A stretch of DNA of 32,000 nucleotides, from positions 4,140,001 to 4,172,000 of the forward strand of contig JAIZWK010000001.1 of assembly GCA_021498095.1 (NCBI GenBank), written 5' to 3'. Shown in pieces: positions 20,942 through 29,992 of the stretch. The position numbers and the translations under genes were made by a program. A model generated the notes under the pieces. That model worked only from the letters and a program-made list of their open reading frames with translations. It ran no database searches and was not told the DNA's origin. Source of the DNA: Candidatus Harpocratesius repetitus. Its GTDB lineage: Archaea > Asgardarchaeota > Lokiarchaeia > Sigyniarchaeales > Promethearchaeaceae. How positions within the stretch are numbered: the first letter of the stretch is position 1; each line of letters opens with the position of its first letter.

Positions 20942-22282
20942 TTACATGCCAGTTTTTTTGCTTCCCCACATTCCCATCGCAACACCCAATTCTTGATGCT
21001 CTTTGGCCGCTTTCTTCACCGGTTCACCCTTCATAACCGCATCAATCGCCTGTCTGAAAGCTTTCGCACCTGCAGTTGGACCCATCTCATGTGCATGAAT
21101 TCCCCCTCCGGCACCTAGCATACAATTCCATCCAATATCACGAACAGCATACTCAACCATTCCTGGGGTGATTCCACCACTCGGCATTGGCATCATTGGT
21201 TTTATATGAGGTAGAGGATATACGCACTCCATGACATTTTGAATAAATCTCTCTGGAACCACTGGTGCTTTTCCATAAGGTGCAGGAAGAACAATAACAT
21301 CTCCACCAACCAATCGGGGAAGTTTTCCCAAAGTTAATTTGCTTGTTACTCCAGACCAAGGATCTTCATACCAAACTCCAGCAAAGTCCATATGCATTTG
21401 AATTGGAATCTTCACACTGGGATCTTCAGCAATCTGCTTAACAATGGTCAGCCCTTGCGGAAGATAATTGATAAGCATTCCATTTCCTCCATGAGACTGA
21501 ACAGTTTCAATATTATGAAAGATTTGTGGAGTGTTATCTGTAACATTGATCATATAAATTGTTTTTTCTCCAGTTTCTTCCTTTGCCCGATCAATAGCTT
21601 CCATACATTTGGTGACACGGTCTTCAAGAGTGTTGAATTGCTGATCTGCGATAAGTTCGTCATCTTTAACAACATCCACACCTCCAAGTGCCACTTTATA
21701 GGTTAAATCAGCTGCAACTTCAGCCGTGTGACCTGTACAGGGTTTAATCATATTATTCAATAGAGGTCGATTCTTAACACCTAAATATTCACGAATTCCA
21801 TCAATACCAAAGCGTGGTCCTGGCATTGTGGCAAGAACATCTTTAGGAAACCAGATGTCCATGAGTTTTAATTTTCCACCCATAGAAATATTCCCAATTA
21901 CAGCCGTGAAGAGTAAAGCAAAGTTCAATTGACCTTCCCGATTTAAAAGGTTAATTTTCGGCCATGCGATTTGAAGAACATAGTCACGATAATTAATATC
22001 TTGATTACCGATTGATTTTGGAATTTCATATTCATAATTTGGTAGTTCATAACATCCAATGACTTTTGCGATGTGATCCTTACGGACTGCTTCAGTTTCT
22101 GCAGGGACTCTAATCCATGTTCCTGTTGATTGCTCTATTGCCGCAAATTGCCCTAGAGTTAATCCATTTTGCTTTTTAGGCAAGCGAACAATAAATGTAC
22201 CTATTATATAATTCTCAATTTCAATTCCATCAAAAACACCCCATGGTTGGGCAGGAATATTATCAAAGCTAGCTATTGGTAT
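20942..22282 (-). CDS. RuBisCO-like protein (form IV RLP); ORF-track start at 22183 is probably too short
   Basis: EQSTGTW, PGPRFGIDG, IKPCTG, GGVDVVKDDE, MPSGG, GAGGGIHAH. The frame stays open and RLP-like upstream to 22285 (FDGIEIENYIIGTFIV). Confidence 0.92.
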   Translation of the reverse strand: MPIASFDNIPAQPWGVFDGIEIENYIIGTFIVRLPKKQNGLTLGQFAAIEQSTGTWIRVPAETEAVRKDHIAKVIGCYELPNYEYEIPKSIGNQDINYRDYVLQIAWPKINLLNREGQLNFALLFTAVIGNISMGGKLKLMDIWFPKDVLATMPGPRFGIDGIREYLGVKNRPLLNNMIKPCTGHTAEVAADLTYKVALGGVDVVKDDELIADQQFNTLEDRVTKCMEAIDRAKEETGEKTIYMINVTDNTPQIFHNIETVQSHGGNGMLINYLPQGLTIVKQIAEDPSVKIPIQMHMDFAGVWYEDPWSGVTSKLTLGKLPRLVGGDVIVLPAPYGKAPVVPERFIQNVMECVYPLPHIKPMMPMPSGGITPGMVEYAVRDIGWNCMLGAGGGIHAHEMGPTAGAKAFRQAIDAVMKGEPVKKAAKEHQELGVAMGMWGSKKTGM

Positions 22283-22722
22283 TTTTCACAACTCCATTTT
22301 GTTTTTTTTTTAAAAGGTAAAAAAATAAAAGTAAAATCCATGATCCATCAATATAACACGCTAAAGGAAAAAAAAGGATAGACAATCCATAATTACAATA
22401 TGTAAATGCAGATATATAAAGACTTTGGCTAAATTCAAAGAAGAAAATCCATTTTTTTTGATTCAGATTTCAATTCCTTTCAAATTATAAAGTCAAAAAA
22501 TATTCGATAATTGATTTGTCATCGAAAATTGAACAAAAATGGACTTTTTTTATTTGGAATAATAAATTCAATTCTAATTTTTCTTACCTTTTTGCTTAAT
22601 ATTGCGAAGTTATTAACACACACCATGTTATTTCCAATTTTGTAGTTTATCTATATTTAAACCAGAAAATTCGCAACGGGATCACAAAATTCTTACTTGG
22701 AATCAGATTAATTAGTATAAGT

Positions 22723-23027: not shown

Positions 23028-24914
23028 TTAATCCTTTTCAATAAATTTTTTTATTCGTTGTTGAAGCATTTGTTTATCTTTAGTTCTTTTAGGATATTTC
23101 TCTAAGAATGCATCTTGATCGCGCTCTATTATATCCAAACAAGTTGATAAAAGAAATAAAGCGCGTTGTTTTTGAATAGATTCAACTGAATTCGCTTCTC
23201 TTAAAAGATTAAGGTAATCGTCAATAGAATAATCTGCAGGATCCATACTTTTCTTACTTTCTTCTTCACCGTTTATTTGTTCTTCTATCATTAATGTTTC
23301 AGCTTTCCGTGTTTCTTCAGCCTTTCGAGCTTCTTTTGCTATTCGCGCTTCTTCAGCCTTTCGAGCTTCTTCTGCTATTCGCGCTTCCTCAGCCTTCCGT
23401 GCTTCCTCAGCCTTTCGAGCTTCTTCTGCTTTCCGTTTTTCTTCAGCCTTCCGTTTTTCTTCAGCCTTCCGTGCTTCTTCAGCCTTTCGAGCATCCTCTG
23501 CTTTTCGAGCTTCCTCAGCCTTCCGTGCTTCTTCAGCCTTTCGAGCATCCTCTGCTTTTCGAGCTTCCTCAGTCTTCCGTGCTTCTTCAGCCTTTCGGGC
23601 CTCTTCAGCCTTTCGGGCCTCTTCAGCCTTTCGAGTTTCTTCTGCTATTCGAGCATCCTCTACTTTTCGAGCTTCTTCAGCTTTCCGTTTTTCTTCAGCT
23701 TTCCGTTTTTCTTCAGCTTTCCGTTTTTCTTCAGCCTTCCGTTTTTCTTCAGCCTTCCGTTTTTCTTCAGCCTTCCGTGCTTCTTCAGCCTTTCGAGCAT
23801 CCTCTGCTTTTCGAGCTTCCTCAGCCTTCCGTGCTTCTTCAGCCTTTCGGGCCTCTTCAGCCTTTCGAGTTTCTTCTGCTATTCGCGCTTCCTCAGCCTT
23901 CCGTGCTTCCTCAGCCTTTCGAGCTTCTTCTGCTATTCGTGCTTCCTCAGCCTTTCGAGCATCCTCTGCTTTTCGAGCATCATCTGCTTTTTGAGCATCC
24001 TCAGCCTTTTGAGCATCCTCAGCCTTTCGTGCTTCTTCAGCCTTCCGTGCTTCTATAGCATCTTTCACTTTCTCGATCTTAGTGCTTTTTTCAGTCTCCT
24101 GTGCTTCTTCAATAATTTTTGCTTCTTCTGCTTTCTCTAAAGCTAAATCCTCTTCTAATTTCTTTTTAAATAATTCTCGCTTGTGTTGAAGGATAGAATA
24201 ATAATCTTGCCAGCTATGAATCAACCCATGATCTTCAGAACCACTCAATTCAAAGTTAATTTTGTCCAATAATTCTTTGGCATCATTGTATTCATGGTTC
24301 TTCATCGCCCTATGAAAATTTACAGCAAGGATATCGACCTTTTTTCGAATTTCGATCTCTTTATTTGTTTTTTCTTGATCAATCAAAGAAGAAAGAAGTG
24401 CTTCATATTTTTTTATTCTTTCCAAATCATTGATTATTTCGGATTCTGAAATAAGATCTTTAACCATTTGCTTCATCATTCCAATATCTGCAAAATCAGA
24501 TACTTTATTCAAGTTTTCTTCTAATTTAGAGATATTAGATTTGATTTCACGTTGTTTTTGTTCCCACCAGGATAATTGTTCTTTATATTCTTCTTCTGAT
24601 ACATTAAGATATTGTAGAAATTCCTGCGTCTGGTAAGTATATCCTTCAATTGTAAAGTGACGTAAAATGGTAATAGTTGGATTTCGTTCAAGTACTTGAT
24701 CTTCAATTAAGGGGATTAAGTTTTTCAAATCTCTTGGTGCTTCAGGACCTACCCAAATATAAAGCCTTTTAACGCGAAAGAAATAAAATGCAAGAATTTG
24801 TACACTTTGAAAATCCTTAATTATATTTTCAGTATTTAGAGCAATTAAATTTCCATTTTTTAGTAAACGATATGCGATAAACGATTTTTTAAAAGGATAT
24901 GCCATTTTTACCAC
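23028..24914 (-). CDS. Gelsolin-like domain + coiled region + long (EEARKA)n charged single-alpha-helix protein
   Basis: N-terminal about 110 aa match the gelsolin-repeat pattern (AYRL..., FQSVQILAF, RLYIWVGPEA, long helix, TIEG, EFLQYL); 42 six-residue repeats follow. Confidence 0.8.
   Translation of the reverse strand: MVKMAYPFKKSFIAYRLLKNGNLIALNTENIIKDFQSVQILAFYFFRVKRLYIWVGPEAPRDLKNLIPLIEDQVLERNPTITILRHFTIEGYTYQTQEFLQYLNVSEEEYKEQLSWWEQKQREIKSNISKLEENLNKVSDFADIGMMKQMVKDLISESEIINDLERIKKYEALLSSLIDQEKTNKEIEIRKKVDILAVNFHRAMKNHEYNDAKELLDKINFELSGSEDHGLIHSWQDYYSILQHKRELFKKKLEEDLALEKAEEAKIIEEAQETEKSTKIEKVKDAIEARKAEEARKAEDAQKAEDAQKADDARKAEDARKAEEARIAEEARKAEEARKAEEARIAEETRKAEEARKAEEARKAEEARKAEDARKAEEARKAEEKRKAEEKRKAEEKRKAEEKRKAEEKRKAEEARKVEDARIAEETRKAEEARKAEEARKAEEARKTEEARKAEDARKAEEARKAEEARKAEDARKAEEARKAEEKRKAEEKRKAEEARKAEEARKAEEARIAEEARKAEEARIAKEARKAEETRKAETLMIEEQINGEEESKKSMDPADYSIDDYLNLLREANSVESIQKQRALFLLSTCLDIIERDQDAFLEKYPKRTKDKQMLQQRIKKFIEKD
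23301..24056 (-). repeat. In-frame 18-bp tandem repeat, 42 units (756 bp), consensus peptide EEARKA
   Basis: Counted from the translation; 756/18 = 42; variants include EDARKA, EEKRKA, EEARIA, EETRKA, EDAQKA. Confidence 0.97.
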
Positions 24915-24933
24915 TTTCTTTTATATTGTTATC

Positions 24934-27900
24934 TTAAATTTTAAGTAATTGTTTTTCTGATGGAAGAATAGGAAGTTTTTCAAAAATATTAAGTAAATAT
25001 GATTTTATTTCTGAATTATTGCTCTGTAACACATCTAATGTAAAAAAGGCTAATTTTACTCCAAAATGGTCTTCTAAGATTTTTTTTACTAATCCTAATC
25101 CATTTAAGACTTCATCAAGTTGTGTTTGAATTTCAGAAACTGGTTTATTCTCATGAATTAAACATAAAGTAGAAAGAAATATCATTAAACTTGCAGAAGT
25201 ATAATCATTTCGTCGCGCCATTCGTTTTGATAATTTAATGTATTTTTGAAAAGCTTCTTTATATCGATTTTTTGAAAGATCACTAAAAATTTCCTGATAA
25301 TAAGTTCGAATCATTTTTTCTCTTTTTTTAAGCAATAAAGAAAACTCATTACTTAATTTGGTAATATCTTGGATTAAAACAATAGCTTGTTGCCCTAATA
25401 AACTATCTTCTTTTAAGGTTTCACCTACTTTAATAGATTCAACTCTCTGTGACTTATTATCTGAAGATTTCTTATCCTCTTGCTGAAATTTCTGGGTTAA
25501 TCGAACTATAAATGAGATTTCCCAGTCAAAAAGTGGAAGCTTTGTCTGAAATGCATTAAAAATATCAAGTATCATCTTTTGTGAATTAGGGTGTTCCCAA
25601 TAGTGTAAAACTAGTTCTAATAATTGAATCGGAATACTTGACATTAAATCTCCATATTTTTTTCCATATTGAAATACAAATTTCTCAAACTCATTATAAA
25701 CTTCATCAGATGTTTTAACTTTAAGCATTGTTATAAATCCCATAATTATTGAGACAATCGAAAACTCAAAATAATTATGGTTAAACATATTGAGAGATTG
25801 TTCAAAATATGATACAGATGCATCTTCGTATTCTTGTCGTGCAAAATGATCTTGACAATCACCCCAATATTTTAAATCAAAGGAAATTCTCCGATTTTTT
25901 AATTGAATATCAGGATAAAGTTTTTCAATCAAAATTAAGTAATTAGATGGAATTGTAGATTTAATCTTTGATAATAATTCTTGATGCCCAGATAAGATAC
26001 GAGAAAAATCAATTTCTTCTCCAAGTAGTGTTTCTAAAATAAGTCGTTCTTCAGGGAAAAATGCAAATACATCAAATAATTGAAGAGCAGATTTTAATTG
26101 TTTAGGTTTATTTGCTTCAATCATCTGAATTAGATAATCGATAAGTTGGTATGCATAAGTTTTTTTAAAAATATCAAATGAGATCCGAGAATTATTCGTA
26201 AACTTATGAATTTCATGTTTCAAAGTATTTATGTTCTTTAATGTAAGGAAAAGTAGAGAGACCACAGCGAGATTTACTCCGGCTAATTCAAATTTTTTAC
26301 TTGCGGCTAAATCTTCAGCTGTTTTTAGATATTTTTCAATTGATTTATAATATTGTCCTTCTCTAAATAATTTGATAGCATCTTGATAATATCGACGTTT
26401 TAGTCCAGTTCGCATTCGTAGTAAATTGACAGATGCAATTCGCTGATCTCGAGCGCGATTTTGCAATTGTGATAATTTCTCAGCAAATATTTTTGCTTTT
26501 TGATTTTGATGGATTTGTTCAACTTTTGATCGACTTAACTCTGATTCGATTTCATCGATTTTTTCGCAATAAGATTGAGACAGTTGGAAATTAGAGATCT
26601 TTTCTGCATACGTTCTAGCTTCACTGTATAAATGATTTTTTAAATAGTATTTTACAATGGTTACATAAATAGAATCTAAATTTATTTCTTCATTTTCTAA
26701 ATAGCTTTTTGTTGTTAAATCTATTTTATTAATCTGTTCAAATAAAGTTGATAACCCTTTTACTTCAATTTTATGAGAAATTAATTCTGCGTAAGCGAGA
26801 AGTTCTTCAAGATACAATTTAGCTAAAAGACGAGATTCTTCATACAGTAGATGATTGCGATATAATCTTATAAAATTAAATAATAATTTCTCCGTTTCTT
26901 CACTTGTCTTATCAGAGTCAGTAAACTTCATTCTATCAAAATGTTCTTTAAGTCGTGGAAATTCATTTTTTAAAAATTTCTTTCTTTGGATTTCAGGAAG
27001 TTTTGAAATATATTTTATTATTTTTTTAATTTTCCCATTATTTAAATTAATCTTTAAAAAATATAGTAAAATTTGATGATTATAATATTCTTGTCCAATT
27101 TGTAAAAACCAATCTGCTTGTTTTAGCAAAATATTCTCAACAAATTGAATATTGTTATGCTGAAGTTCAAATTCTAAATCTTGATATAGATCTTCCATCA
27201 TTTGATCAAATTTTGATTTCTCATATTCAATATATTCAAATAAGAAATCAGTTTTTAAACCTAACTCTTCTAATTCTCCTTTTCGGGCTAAATTTTTAAA
27301 GCGCTCTTCAGTTTCCATTCGATATTTAGTTAATTCGATTTGTAATATTGTATCATTAATTTTTGGAATTATACCTTCAGCTTTTAAGAAATCACGCCGC
27401 TCTATGAATAGTCTTGCCATTTTATAAAGTATTTCATCTACATTTTCTGTTTCAATATTATAGGTCTCCCAAATAGTAGTAAGTTCATCATAGCTCAATC
27501 GTGCAGTATCAACATCACCTATATTTAAATTTCTAATTATTATTCTCTTTAATATTTTCACCGCTTTCCGAGCAAGAACTTGCAATGATTCAAATAACCC
27601 TGACTTTTGATATCGCTGAAAACATAGATATAATTGTGCTTTTGCAAGCCCATCTTGGTTTTTTTCGATTAATTGATCAGCAAGATGAGCAATTTTTTCT
27701 GTCATCTCTTCTAATATGGTGATCATTCTAAAATGATCAAATTTATCTAATAAAGCAAATGCATTTTGCAATTCATGTTGTGCAATCCAAGCATCAATCG
27801 CAAGTTTATAGCACTCTTCCATTAAAGGAATATCATCAAGTTCCATTTTTATCCAATTTCCAACCGTTTCAAATTTTAACGCGGCAGATTCATATTTATT

Positions 27901-28683
27901 TTGAGATAATAATACTTTTGCTTCTTCAATTATTGTATTTGCATAGTCCTTTTGATACTTCTTAAAGAAAATAGGGTTTATTTGTCGAATTATTTGAGCT
28001 GCTTTTAAATAATTTCCACTTTTTGCATAGAGATTAGCTGTTTTTTCAGCAAGAATATAATAATCTTGAGAATCTGAACGTTTTTGAATATTAATCACTC
28101 GTTCACACAAAACCGCTGCCGGCAGAAATTTAGATTGAGATATAAATTCATTTATTTTCGAATAATAAAGGGGTTTTTGAATCCAAGCAATATCGGAATT
28201 AATGTTTCTTTGACCAGAAATCACCGATTGACATAAAGTTATTAAATATTCACGTATCATGCCAATTTCTGTTCGTGGAATAATAAAAATACAAGCCGAA
28301 GAACGAAAAGAGATATCTTTTATGATTTCCGATATATCTGCTTTAAGAATAGCATCCATAGTTTGAATCACAATTATCATCGGAATATCAGGGCGAATTT
28401 TTTCAATTTGATCTAATACATGTTGAAGCTTTTCAATATTTCCTATTTGATTAGGATCCAAATAAAATAAAATTCCATCCGCCATACTAATTGAATTTTT
28501 TCCTTGTTCTTCTACGTTATGAGGAATGAGAAGAGATAATTCTATTTCATCATCTTCTAGTGTAAAAACTGTTGTATACTGAACATCTTGACCCTCATCT
28601 TTACTCTGGAATCCAATTTCATTAAATCCTTGCATGGCTGAAAAAATATCACCCAACACAGCAAATGTTAATACAAATTGCAA
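24934..28683 (-). CDS. Degenerate Ras-like GTPase-fold domain fused to a TPR/SNAP-like alpha-solenoid (1249 aa)
   Basis: N-terminal ADGILFYLDP...IEKL..VLDQIEK.RPDIPMIIV follows small-GTPase secondary structure without G1/G3/G4 consensus; the remainder has TPR-like A..Y..A/G helical pairs. Confidence 0.72.
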   Translation of the reverse strand: MQFVLTFAVLGDIFSAMQGFNEIGFQSKDEGQDVQYTTVFTLEDDEIELSLLIPHNVEEQGKNSISMADGILFYLDPNQIGNIEKLQHVLDQIEKIRPDIPMIIVIQTMDAILKADISEIIKDISFRSSACIFIIPRTEIGMIREYLITLCQSVISGQRNINSDIAWIQKPLYYSKINEFISQSKFLPAAVLCERVINIQKRSDSQDYYILAEKTANLYAKSGNYLKAAQIIRQINPIFFKKYQKDYANTIIEEAKVLLSQNKYESAALKFETVGNWIKMELDDIPLMEECYKLAIDAWIAQHELQNAFALLDKFDHFRMITILEEMTEKIAHLADQLIEKNQDGLAKAQLYLCFQRYQKSGLFESLQVLARKAVKILKRIIIRNLNIGDVDTARLSYDELTTIWETYNIETENVDEILYKMARLFIERRDFLKAEGIIPKINDTILQIELTKYRMETEERFKNLARKGELEELGLKTDFLFEYIEYEKSKFDQMMEDLYQDLEFELQHNNIQFVENILLKQADWFLQIGQEYYNHQILLYFLKINLNNGKIKKIIKYISKLPEIQRKKFLKNEFPRLKEHFDRMKFTDSDKTSEETEKLLFNFIRLYRNHLLYEESRLLAKLYLEELLAYAELISHKIEVKGLSTLFEQINKIDLTTKSYLENEEINLDSIYVTIVKYYLKNHLYSEARTYAEKISNFQLSQSYCEKIDEIESELSRSKVEQIHQNQKAKIFAEKLSQLQNRARDQRIASVNLLRMRTGLKRRYYQDAIKLFREGQYYKSIEKYLKTAEDLAASKKFELAGVNLAVVSLLFLTLKNINTLKHEIHKFTNNSRISFDIFKKTYAYQLIDYLIQMIEANKPKQLKSALQLFDVFAFFPEERLILETLLGEEIDFSRILSGHQELLSKIKSTIPSNYLILIEKLYPDIQLKNRRISFDLKYWGDCQDHFARQEYEDASVSYFEQSLNMFNHNYFEFSIVSIIMGFITMLKVKTSDEVYNEFEKFVFQYGKKYGDLMSSIPIQLLELVLHYWEHPNSQKMILDIFNAFQTKLPLFDWEISFIVRLTQKFQQEDKKSSDNKSQRVESIKVGETLKEDSLLGQQAIVLIQDITKLSNEFSLLLKKREKMIRTYYQEIFSDLSKNRYKEAFQKYIKLSKRMARRNDYTSASLMIFLSTLCLIHENKPVSEIQTQLDEVLNGLGLVKKILEDHFGVKLAFFTLDVLQSNNSEIKSYLLNIFEKLPILPSEKQLLKI

Positions 28684-28815: not shown

Positions 28816-29286
28816 ATGCATATAAACATTCATTGCATCAGATCAAGTATGCATTCTGATTATGAGAGTAAGAAATTAGCTCAATGCTTTATTGCAGAAT
28901 TATCATCTGAAATCAAGATCCCTCCATCAATTCACGAACAATTGAAGCCGTTGGGTAAAAATTTAGTCGCTGTCATTCCAGGAGAATCAAAAAAGTTATC
29001 CTTTTTCTTGACCAATTGCTCTAGAGTCCTTTTTATAAAATTGATATTGGATAAATCTTCCTTAAATGAAAGTTTCTTTACATCCTTAAGGAGAACTCTA
29101 CAAAAATTAGGTATGGAAAATCTTTTCTCTACAGGTATATGTTTTAAAGATGATATCTGTGTTTGGGAAGGTGTCTTTGAATTTGATGATGATTCGAATT
29201 TTCCACAAATAAAGGAAAATTTAGCTAAAGTAACTCATGTTAATAAAGCAAAATTTGAAAAAATCGAATTAAATAAAGATTTGTAA
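28816..29286 (+). CDS. Hypothetical regulator-like protein; possible AbrB-like N-terminus and ACT-like C-terminus
   Basis: IKIPPSI..L pattern, then a beta-alpha-beta-beta-alpha-beta-like stretch (LFSTGICF..CVWEGVF); by eye only. Confidence 0.5.
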   Translation: MHINIHCIRSSMHSDYESKKLAQCFIAELSSEIKIPPSIHEQLKPLGKNLVAVIPGESKKLSFFLTNCSRVLFIKLILDKSSLNESFFTSLRRTLQKLGMENLFSTGICFKDDICVWEGVFEFDDDSNFPQIKENLAKVTHVNKAKFEKIELNKDL

Positions 29287-29356
29287 GTAAATTATAAAAA
29301 TTGAACAAGGTGGTTATACGTCATTTAGAAGAAATTCAGAAGATAAAATCTTTTTA

Positions 29357-29992
29357 TTGCATCCCACCCGAAGAAAAATCTATAAAATAATTTGTGAAAA
29401 TCCAGGGTCGTACTTTTACCGTTTAATGCAACATGGGGAAGAAGGTATAAGTAGTGCAACCTTACTTTATCATTTGTCAAAATTGGAAGAAGATGAATTG
29501 ATTCATTCTGCAAAAATCGATGGAAAACGCATCTATTTTCCCAAAAACTTAAGAGATTTTGAAACTGAAAGAGCTTTTATGCTCTTAAAAAATGAAAATG
29601 CCCGAAAGATATTTCTCTATATTTTAAATCATGAGAGCTGTTTTCAAAACGAAATTGCACGAGAATTAAATATTCATCATGATACAGTTCGTCATCACGT
29701 TTCTAAACTTGTTGATTCAGAAATGGTCGAAAAACATAAAGTAGGTAGGCAGATTCATTTTAAAATTGGGCGATTGGGAAAAGAAATCTTAAAGGGTTCA
29801 ATGATAATCTTTTCAGAAGCATATATTCGCTTTATTATATCTAAATTGGCTGATGATTGTCATTTTCCAGAGATTATAGAGCGAACAAATGAAAGAATTG
29901 TGATTCGAGTTGTATGCCCTAACGAAGATGATATTGAATTAAGTATTGACATCTCAGGTTGGGTAATTGATGAAAACCCAAACAAAAAATAA
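29357..29992 (+). CDS. Tandem winged-HTH transcriptional regulator; real start probably upstream (frame open from 29291)
   Basis: Two wHTH units: RRKIY..I.ENPG...TLLYHL.KLE and ARKIF.YIL......EIA.ELNIHHDTVRHHV.KL. Confidence 0.85.
   Translation: MHPTRRKIYKIICENPGSYFYRLMQHGEEGISSATLLYHLSKLEEDELIHSAKIDGKRIYFPKNLRDFETERAFMLLKNENARKIFLYILNHESCFQNEIARELNIHHDTVRHHVSKLVDSEMVEKHKVGRQIHFKIGRLGKEILKGSMIIFSEAYIRFIISKLADDCHFPEIIERTNERIVIRVVCPNEDDIELSIDISGWVIDENPNKK

Follow-up and report, generated by a model that had tools for sequence, protein, structure and literature searches.

Two neighbouring genes, here called A (P0001) and B (P0002), lie on the minus strand of a 32,000-nucleotide (nt) stretch of the genome of Candidatus Harpocratesius repetitus (contig JAIZWK010000001.1, positions 4,140,001 to 4,172,000; hereafter the window), and they are probably separately conserved genes of cytoskeletal type that adjoin only in this genus, with B acting as an actin-binding spacer and A as a scaffold. 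In this reading the gelsolin-homology domain at the head of B would bind the Lokiactin filament, and a six-helix region followed by a rapidly evolving, stiff single alpha-helix of ~38 nm would keep a small conserved C-terminal docking domain away from it, B being a spacer or tether. The Ras-fold domain of A would no longer bind nucleotide and would therefore be an interaction module, not a switch; in the scaffold it would be followed by ~1,080 residues of helical repeats of TPR/SNAP-like type, the last of them three homologous modules of 135 aa.

The host genome is closed, at 4.36 Mb and ~30% G+C. Labels beginning with G denote sampled genomes (G000, this genome; G137, Lokiarchaeum ossiferum) and those beginning with L denote related loci; the genus Ca. 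Harpocratesius is g1, g5 and g6 are the other genera with B orthologues, and f1 to f3 are families. A first-pass annotation of the window had placed two same-strand genes 19 nt apart (24915-24933), and the open reading frame (ORF) coordinates and the sequence confirm this, each gene being read on the minus strand (Table 1). The TTG start of A is in register with the family N-terminus MxYxFxxLVLGD in an alignment of relatives. The 19-nt gap belongs to the GTG start of B at 24914; the likelier start is the ATG at 24905, favoured because of the N-termini of the orthologues and the gene call in the 92%-identical relative L088, and it gives a protein of 625 aa and a gap of 28 nt, which is likewise present in L088. 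Inspection of the A-B spacer revealed no oligo-T run and, as the 19-28-nt gap has none, A and B may be co-transcribed in this genus. Pfam and NCBIfam gave no credible match to either protein, so domain assignment needed structure prediction. Pfam matches of B to Plasmodium_HRP, EntC and RadB were rejected as low-complexity or repeat artefacts of its charged array, and DUF4064 on A and SRP_SPB on B were rejected as sub-threshold.

The first 240 residues of B were aligned with 22 relatives and the segment was folded with AlphaFold2 (AF2), resulting in a model with a predicted local distance difference test score (pLDDT) of 88.6 in which residues ~8-100 form a beta-sheet with one long and one short helix, followed by six helices. 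Foldseek alignment of the head to the PDB returned Thorarchaeota ProGel (7c2f_B) first, with a template modelling (TM) score of 0.78, and the top 50 matches were all gelsolin, villin, adseverin, CapG or fragmin domains. The head profile also reaches ProGel 7c2f_B (E 1.1e-3) and a Lokiarchaeota two-domain gelsolin (2DGel; E 0.022), in an alignment that spans the YxWxG and EGxE..F motifs, so that the gelsolin-like character given to B by the first-pass annotation holds in the modelled fold, the structural search and the profile. WxG is the signature for calling Asgard gelsolin domains (Akil et al., 2022; PMC9433394), and the LYIWVG of B carries it and aligns with YLWRG of ProGel; Y49 and W51 are invariant in the 22 relatives. 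One gelsolin domain was detected in B, the remainder being helical and charged. A word-indexed homology search with residues 1-250 found no matches, a result of low sensitivity since relatives clearly exist. On the modelled architecture, B would belong to the known Asgard 1DGelX/GelX class as a new variant of greater length, and we infer from the fold, the motifs and the co-immunoprecipitation (co-IP) of an orthologue that its gelsolin-homology domain binds Lokiactin.

Of the 400 genomes in the phylum sample, 94 have relatives of the head and helical region of B; these relatives are confined to families f1-f3 of a single order and come as proteins of ~350, ~540, ~770 and ~915 aa. True orthologues, sharing with B both its head and its C-terminal domain, were found in 7 of the order's 154 genomes, and the 7 fall into three genera, all of family f1. 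Their lengths are ~275 aa (G136), 328 aa (G142), 440 aa (G141), 571 aa (L088), 625 aa (this genome) and 741-780 aa (L002, G135), and the orthologue of L. ossiferum, UYP46565.1, has 867 aa. The genome under study also contains two paralogues of the head, in ORFs of 916 aa (G000:C1:568281-568988) and 339 aa (G000:C1:2185212-2185808), and a Pfam-detectable 2DGel in an ORF of 348 aa (G000:C1:4005197-4005718).

The 252-residue charged repeat described by the first-pass annotation was recovered by Tandem Repeats Finder as 42.1 copies of an 18-nt unit, encoding 253 residues. The array is in frame and consists mainly of EEARKA and EEKRKA hexads, with 29% E, 28.5% A, 18% K, 16% R and 2.8% hydrophobic residues; E, K, R and D make up 66%, and with A included 94%. 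Opposite charges are paired 81 times at i+4 and 150 times at i+3. Because hydrophobic residues amount to 2.8%, a coiled coil is ruled out on composition as read from the sequence, and the array is probably an ER/K-type single alpha-helix (SAH) of ~38 nm (253 residues at 0.15 nm per residue). Copy number is 42 here and 35.4 hexad units in L088, whose gene A is 92% identical, and the L. ossiferum orthologue has a ~47-copy array of the octad AREEAEQK in the equivalent position. Since unlike repeat units occupy the same place in orthologues, a long charged helix seems to be under selection as a property, not as a sequence. The spacer appears hypervariable, ranging from ~0 (G136, with its ~275-aa protein) to ~600 aa, and as it is absent or short in some orthologues it would be dispensable for the core function. 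An ORF of 254 aa runs antisense to the array (window 23294-24058, plus strand) and is most likely not a gene, because the 18-nt unit simply has no stop in that frame.

The conserved C-terminal domain of B occupies the C-termini of orthologues in genera g1, g5 and g6 only. A domain of ~60 aa of the same kind was also seen alone or in other proteins (G137:C1:284834-285028, G141:C185:2437-2619 and G135:C329:5154-5342), in ORFs of 149, 154 and 544 aa, and as it occurs outside B it may be a portable docking module.

The N-terminal domain of A was modelled with AF2 from an alignment of 26 relatives over residues 1-200, with a pLDDT of 87.5, and its strands and helices follow one another as in canonical Ras. 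The top 50 Foldseek matches were all KRAS, HRAS or Rab structures (TM ~0.74, E ~1e-7), and the family profile matched HRas, KRas and Rab21 weakly. A profile of residues 1-480 aligned to 1.84 billion representative proteins returned 107 matches, comprising the family itself, weakly matched TPR proteins and true Ras-family GTPases of ~180 aa, the last at E 1e-4 to 1e-3. The GTPase fold of the first-pass annotation is thus retained, without its nucleotide motifs: GxxxxGK[ST] (G1) and NKxD (G4) occur in none of 26 family members, DxxG (G3) is absent in 25 of the 26 and its single match, DVPG, looks like chance, and no Pfam GTPase family matches A. Since these motifs are missing across the 26 members, the domain was filed as a pseudo-GTPase, not a GTPase, and the loss appears to be family-wide.

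The remainder of A is predicted to be an alpha-helical solenoid, and the TPR/SNAP-like label proposed for it at first reading receives a Pfam SNAP (PF14938) score of 24.9 bits on residues 160-480 (cut-off 25), a second weak match over residues 745-900 (R1), and TPR_2 (PF07719) matches in 8 of 20 relatives, A of this genome not being one of them. Pairwise hhalign comparison of the C-terminal segments gave probabilities of 99.5% for R1 with R3 (E 6e-23), 99.0% for R1 with R2 and 98.7% for R2 with R3 (E 2e-16), and the C-terminus consists of three homologous modules of ~135 aa. Full-length, single-copy relatives of A are present in 145 of the 154 genomes of its order, including all 39 of good quality; their lengths are ~1245 aa, with a subset of ~1085 aa. 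A profile search recovers A in 140 of the order's 153 remaining genomes and in none of the 246 genomes sampled elsewhere in the phylum. The ESM Atlas yielded only the family itself, and a literature search found no paper describing it. As judged from these searches, A is part of the core gene set of one order of Lokiarchaeia, in single copy, and belongs to an undescribed, order-specific pseudo-GTPase/TPR family.

The first-pass annotation had further joined A and B in a putative operon for a two-component scaffold that would tie actin filaments to a membrane or to a complex of trafficking-like kind; A would in that case dock B. Besides the shared strand and the short gap without a T-run, this is favoured by adjacency in all five genus members examined (G000, G135, G136, L002 and L088), where the two genes lie roughly 10-95 nt apart. 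In every other genus with both orthologues (g5 and g6) the adjacency is absent: A and B are 1.1 Mb apart in the closed genome of L. ossiferum and 224 kb apart in the closed genome G142, and in G139 and G141 they are on separate contigs. The synteny check thus goes against the proposed scaffold, as adjacency is not conserved beyond the genus, and the pairing appears to be a genus-level local arrangement, not a conserved two-component system. Moreover, A is found throughout the order and the B orthogroup is confined to three genera, so the function of A cannot depend on B.

A preprint on L. ossiferum motility reports a Lokiactin co-IP (10.1101/2025.11.30.690169, Supp. Table 2), and its table was read for the orthologues of both genes. 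Orthologue accessions were obtained by exact-sequence look-up and linked to locus tags through Table S3 of the preprint, the accession-to-tag offset not changing from one listed flanking gene to the other; calculated masses of 102.96, 143.95, 98.45 and 51.39 kDa match the tabulated 102.9, 143.86, 98.39 and 51.36 kDa. The B orthologue (UYP46565.1, GNAMCCOK_02880) and the A orthologue (UYP47553.1, GNAMCCOK_03870) have log2 ratios of 1.32 and 0.90 and adjusted p values of 0.023 and 0.044, respectively, and both were quantified in three of three actin immunoprecipitations (IPs) and in none of three immunoglobulin G (IgG) controls. Bar2 (GNAMCCOK_03871) has a log2 ratio of 1.66 (adjusted p 0.075; actin IPs 3/3, IgG 1/3), and a B paralogue (GNAMCCOK_03181) is not significant (log2 0.78, adjusted p 0.45; actin IPs 3/3, IgG 2/3). 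The A orthologue falls under the authors' cut-off of log2 > 1, and neither orthologue is named in the preprint (10.1101/2025.11.30.690169). The co-IP supports an actin association of B and gives a hint of one for A; it says nothing on direct contact between the two. With both orthologues in the actin-associated fraction, A and B may have a looser functional link through actin.

The operon reading can also point to the gene behind A, which in two genera is of cytoskeleton or membrane type (B here, Bar2 in L. ossiferum), to a membrane protein as conserved neighbour of A, and to the joint recovery with Lokiactin; but more than 100 proteins are similarly enriched in that experiment, and with the genes unlinked elsewhere we consider a two-component scaffold unlikely.

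Several observations weigh against the reading of B as an actin-binding spacer and A as a scaffold, separately conserved. The tight spacing in five genus members and the presence of both orthologues in one co-IP would fit a real A-B partnership as well. In the ratio-sorted co-IP sheet the B orthologue is preceded by roughly 80 proteins and that of A by roughly 110, and with so long a list the enrichment is modest and may be indirect. The TPR/SNAP-like label of the A solenoid rests on borderline profile scores. Pfam Gelsolin (PF00626) gives no match to B at E <= 1 and finds the 2DGel alone in this genome, and B is only ~16% identical to ProGel.

The last two points would also suit a head that is a diverged gelsolin fold for a non-actin partner, the more so as the 2DGel of the same genome was matched clearly, and the array could then be a neutral, slippage-driven expansion with no mechanical role, as the change from 42 to 35 copies between close relatives and the G136 orthologue lacking any spacer would allow. 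Yet YxWxG and EGxE..F are retained, W51 does not vary among the relatives, the orthologue is significantly enriched with Lokiactin, and charged-helix arrays built from hexads in one species and octads in another at one position, here in frame and almost wholly of E, A, K, R and D, point to selection for the property, which makes this account decidedly improbable. Least probable is that A is still a functional nucleotide-dependent switch with an atypical site, regulating the products of neighbouring genes: its Ras topology is fully kept at high model confidence, and D69-G70 and G11 are invariant or nearly so, but none of 26 members has the P-loop lysine/serine or NKxD, the one DxxG is DVPG, and Pfam detects no GTPase.

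On the other side of A, the divergently transcribed P0019 belongs to a family with members in 147 of the 154 genomes of the order and adjoins A in nearly every genome with enough contig, frequently as a tandem pair. The family had no relatives in a PDB profile search and none in the ESM Atlas. The DUF2085 gene holds the same position in L002, L003, L004 and L088, and P0019 and DUF2085 accompany A throughout the order; family f1 has two further genes between A and P0019, for a ~150-aa protein and a double winged-helix regulator. From this gene order, the stable genomic partner of A is the upstream divergent cluster of P0019 and DUF2085, not B.

The gene downstream of A varies by lineage, being Bar2 in L. 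ossiferum, a 309-aa gene in G142 and a convergent TFIIB gene in family f3. The L. ossiferum gene encodes a 451-aa protein identical to UYP47554.1, 'Bar2' (G137:C1:4484207-4485559; L074:208-1560); Lokiarchaeum Bar2 (also at L003:9888-11243) is a helical BAR-domain protein with a two-fold repeat, and a 37% identical homologue is encoded elsewhere in the genome under study (G000:C1:2596684-2598057). In family f3 (L075-L079, L004) the convergent TFIIB gene is followed by one to three tandem Arf-like proteins of ~400-420 aa, with Arf/Ras/Gtr1 GTPase domains according to precomputed matches for L004. A gene resembling the RuBisCO large subunit lies downstream of B (window 20942-22183, minus strand, and 22184-22297), and in loci L003 and L088, too, a RuBisCO_large gene follows A at a distance of a few genes. 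A more elaborate arrangement, in which A would form the centre of an archaeal linker between actin and membrane, anchored via P0019/DUF2085 and recruiting interchangeable adaptors encoded downstream (B here, Bar2 in Lokiarchaeum), with the ER/K helix of B setting the distance between filament and membrane, is quite unlikely.

Table 1. Features of genes A and B and of the adjoining divergent cluster, in window coordinates
Feature	Position	Strand	Remarks
Gene A (P0001)	28683..24934	-	1249 aa, TTG start, transcribed before B
A, predicted Ras-like fold without G1/G3/G4, residues 1-160	28204..28683	-	AF2, Foldseek, profile, motif scan
A, predicted alpha-helical TPR/SNAP-like solenoid, residues ~165-744	26452..28191	-	Pfam SNAP/TPR_2 scores
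A, repeat R1, aa 745-900	25984..26451	-	hhalign
A, repeat R2, aa 925-1075	25459..25911	-	hhalign
A, repeat R3, aa 1110-1249	24937..25356	-	hhalign
A-B spacer	24906..24933	-	28 nt to ATG 24905; 19 nt (24915-24933) to GTG 24914
Gene B (P0002)	24914..23028	-	GelX-type, gelsolin-headed; 628 aa from GTG
B, gelsolin-homology domain, residues ~8-105	24600..24893	-	YxWxG and EGxE..F motifs, AF2, Foldseek, profile
B, six-helix region ('X' part beside the head), residues ~107-242	24189..24596	-	Model helices 104-239; conserved in 22 relatives
B, tandem array encoding aa 287-539 (253 aa)	23298..24054	-	Tandem Repeats Finder, 18-nt unit x 42.1
B, C-terminal conserved helical domain (~70 aa, ...YPKR...)	23031..23246	-	At extreme C-terminus of orthologues
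156-aa protein and 211-aa double winged-helix regulator	28816..29992	+	Between A and P0019
P0019, 243 aa	30058..30789	+	Conserved FPxYLKNDQTGRQC motif; divergently transcribed from A
DUF2085 membrane protein, 401 aa	30789..31994	+	Pfam PF09858; last gene of divergent cluster

Among described proteins, B is most like Thorarchaeota 1DGelX (KXH72031.1; PMC7444086) and L. ossiferum B35_GelX (10.1101/2025.11.30.690169), which share with it a single N-terminal gelsolin domain with WxG and a helical extension, and both the class and B are Asgard-restricted. Actin nucleation and severing by Thor 1DGelX are not under calcium control (PMC7444086), and the B orthologue co-precipitates with Lokiactin, as does B35_GelX (10.1101/2025.11.30.690169). 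B35_GelX (UYP44381.1) and the B orthologue UYP46565.1 are two distinct proteins of L. ossiferum. In contrast to the ~350-400 aa of the class, B has 625 aa and is missed by Pfam Gelsolin, and it differs further in its 253-aa ER/K-type array and its separate conserved C-terminal domain. B is grouped with 1DGelX by architecture. Between the two species, A (UYP47553.1) and B (UYP46565.1) of L. ossiferum have the same architectures as here, and A stands beside the same divergent cluster, whereas there the two genes are 1.1 Mb apart, Bar2 follows A, and the array of B is made of the AREEAEQK octad.

ER/K SAH domains occur in eukaryotic myosin VI and X and in caldesmon. The array of B resembles them in being rich in Glu, Arg and Lys, with many i/i+3 and i/i+4 charge pairs and few hydrophobic residues, and a role as a stiff spacer is proposed by likeness; it differs in its 28.5% alanine and in being a perfect hexad array that is recent and varies in copy number between species. 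Nucleotide-free pseudo-GTPases are known from eukaryotes in CENP-M, the pG1 and pG2 domains of p190RhoGAP and the dynein light intermediate chain. Like these, A has a Ras-like fold with its G motifs erased and would play a scaffold part, but A is archaeal and specific to one order, and its fold is followed by ~1,080 residues of helical repeats; the likeness is one of fold, and the nearest sequence relatives of A are ordinary Ras-family GTPases. With alpha-SNAP/Sec17 and TPR scaffolds (PF14938, PF07719) A has a helical-hairpin repeat signal in common, although the score lies just below the Pfam cut-off and there is no NSF or SNARE context, and the likeness to alpha-SNAP may be a generic TPR one.

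There is no support for A and B as a dedicated operon system, and the interest of the locus lies in each gene separately. B is a gelsolin-headed protein whose orthologues have long charged helices made from differing repeat units, and a role of B as a 'molecular ruler' is directly testable, since an orthologue co-precipitates with Lokiactin in a cultured species. A would join a nucleotide-dead Ras fold to a large solenoid, a combination whose other known examples are eukaryotic scaffolds, in what appears to be a core protein of a whole Lokiarchaeial order that went unremarked in the same actin pull-down.

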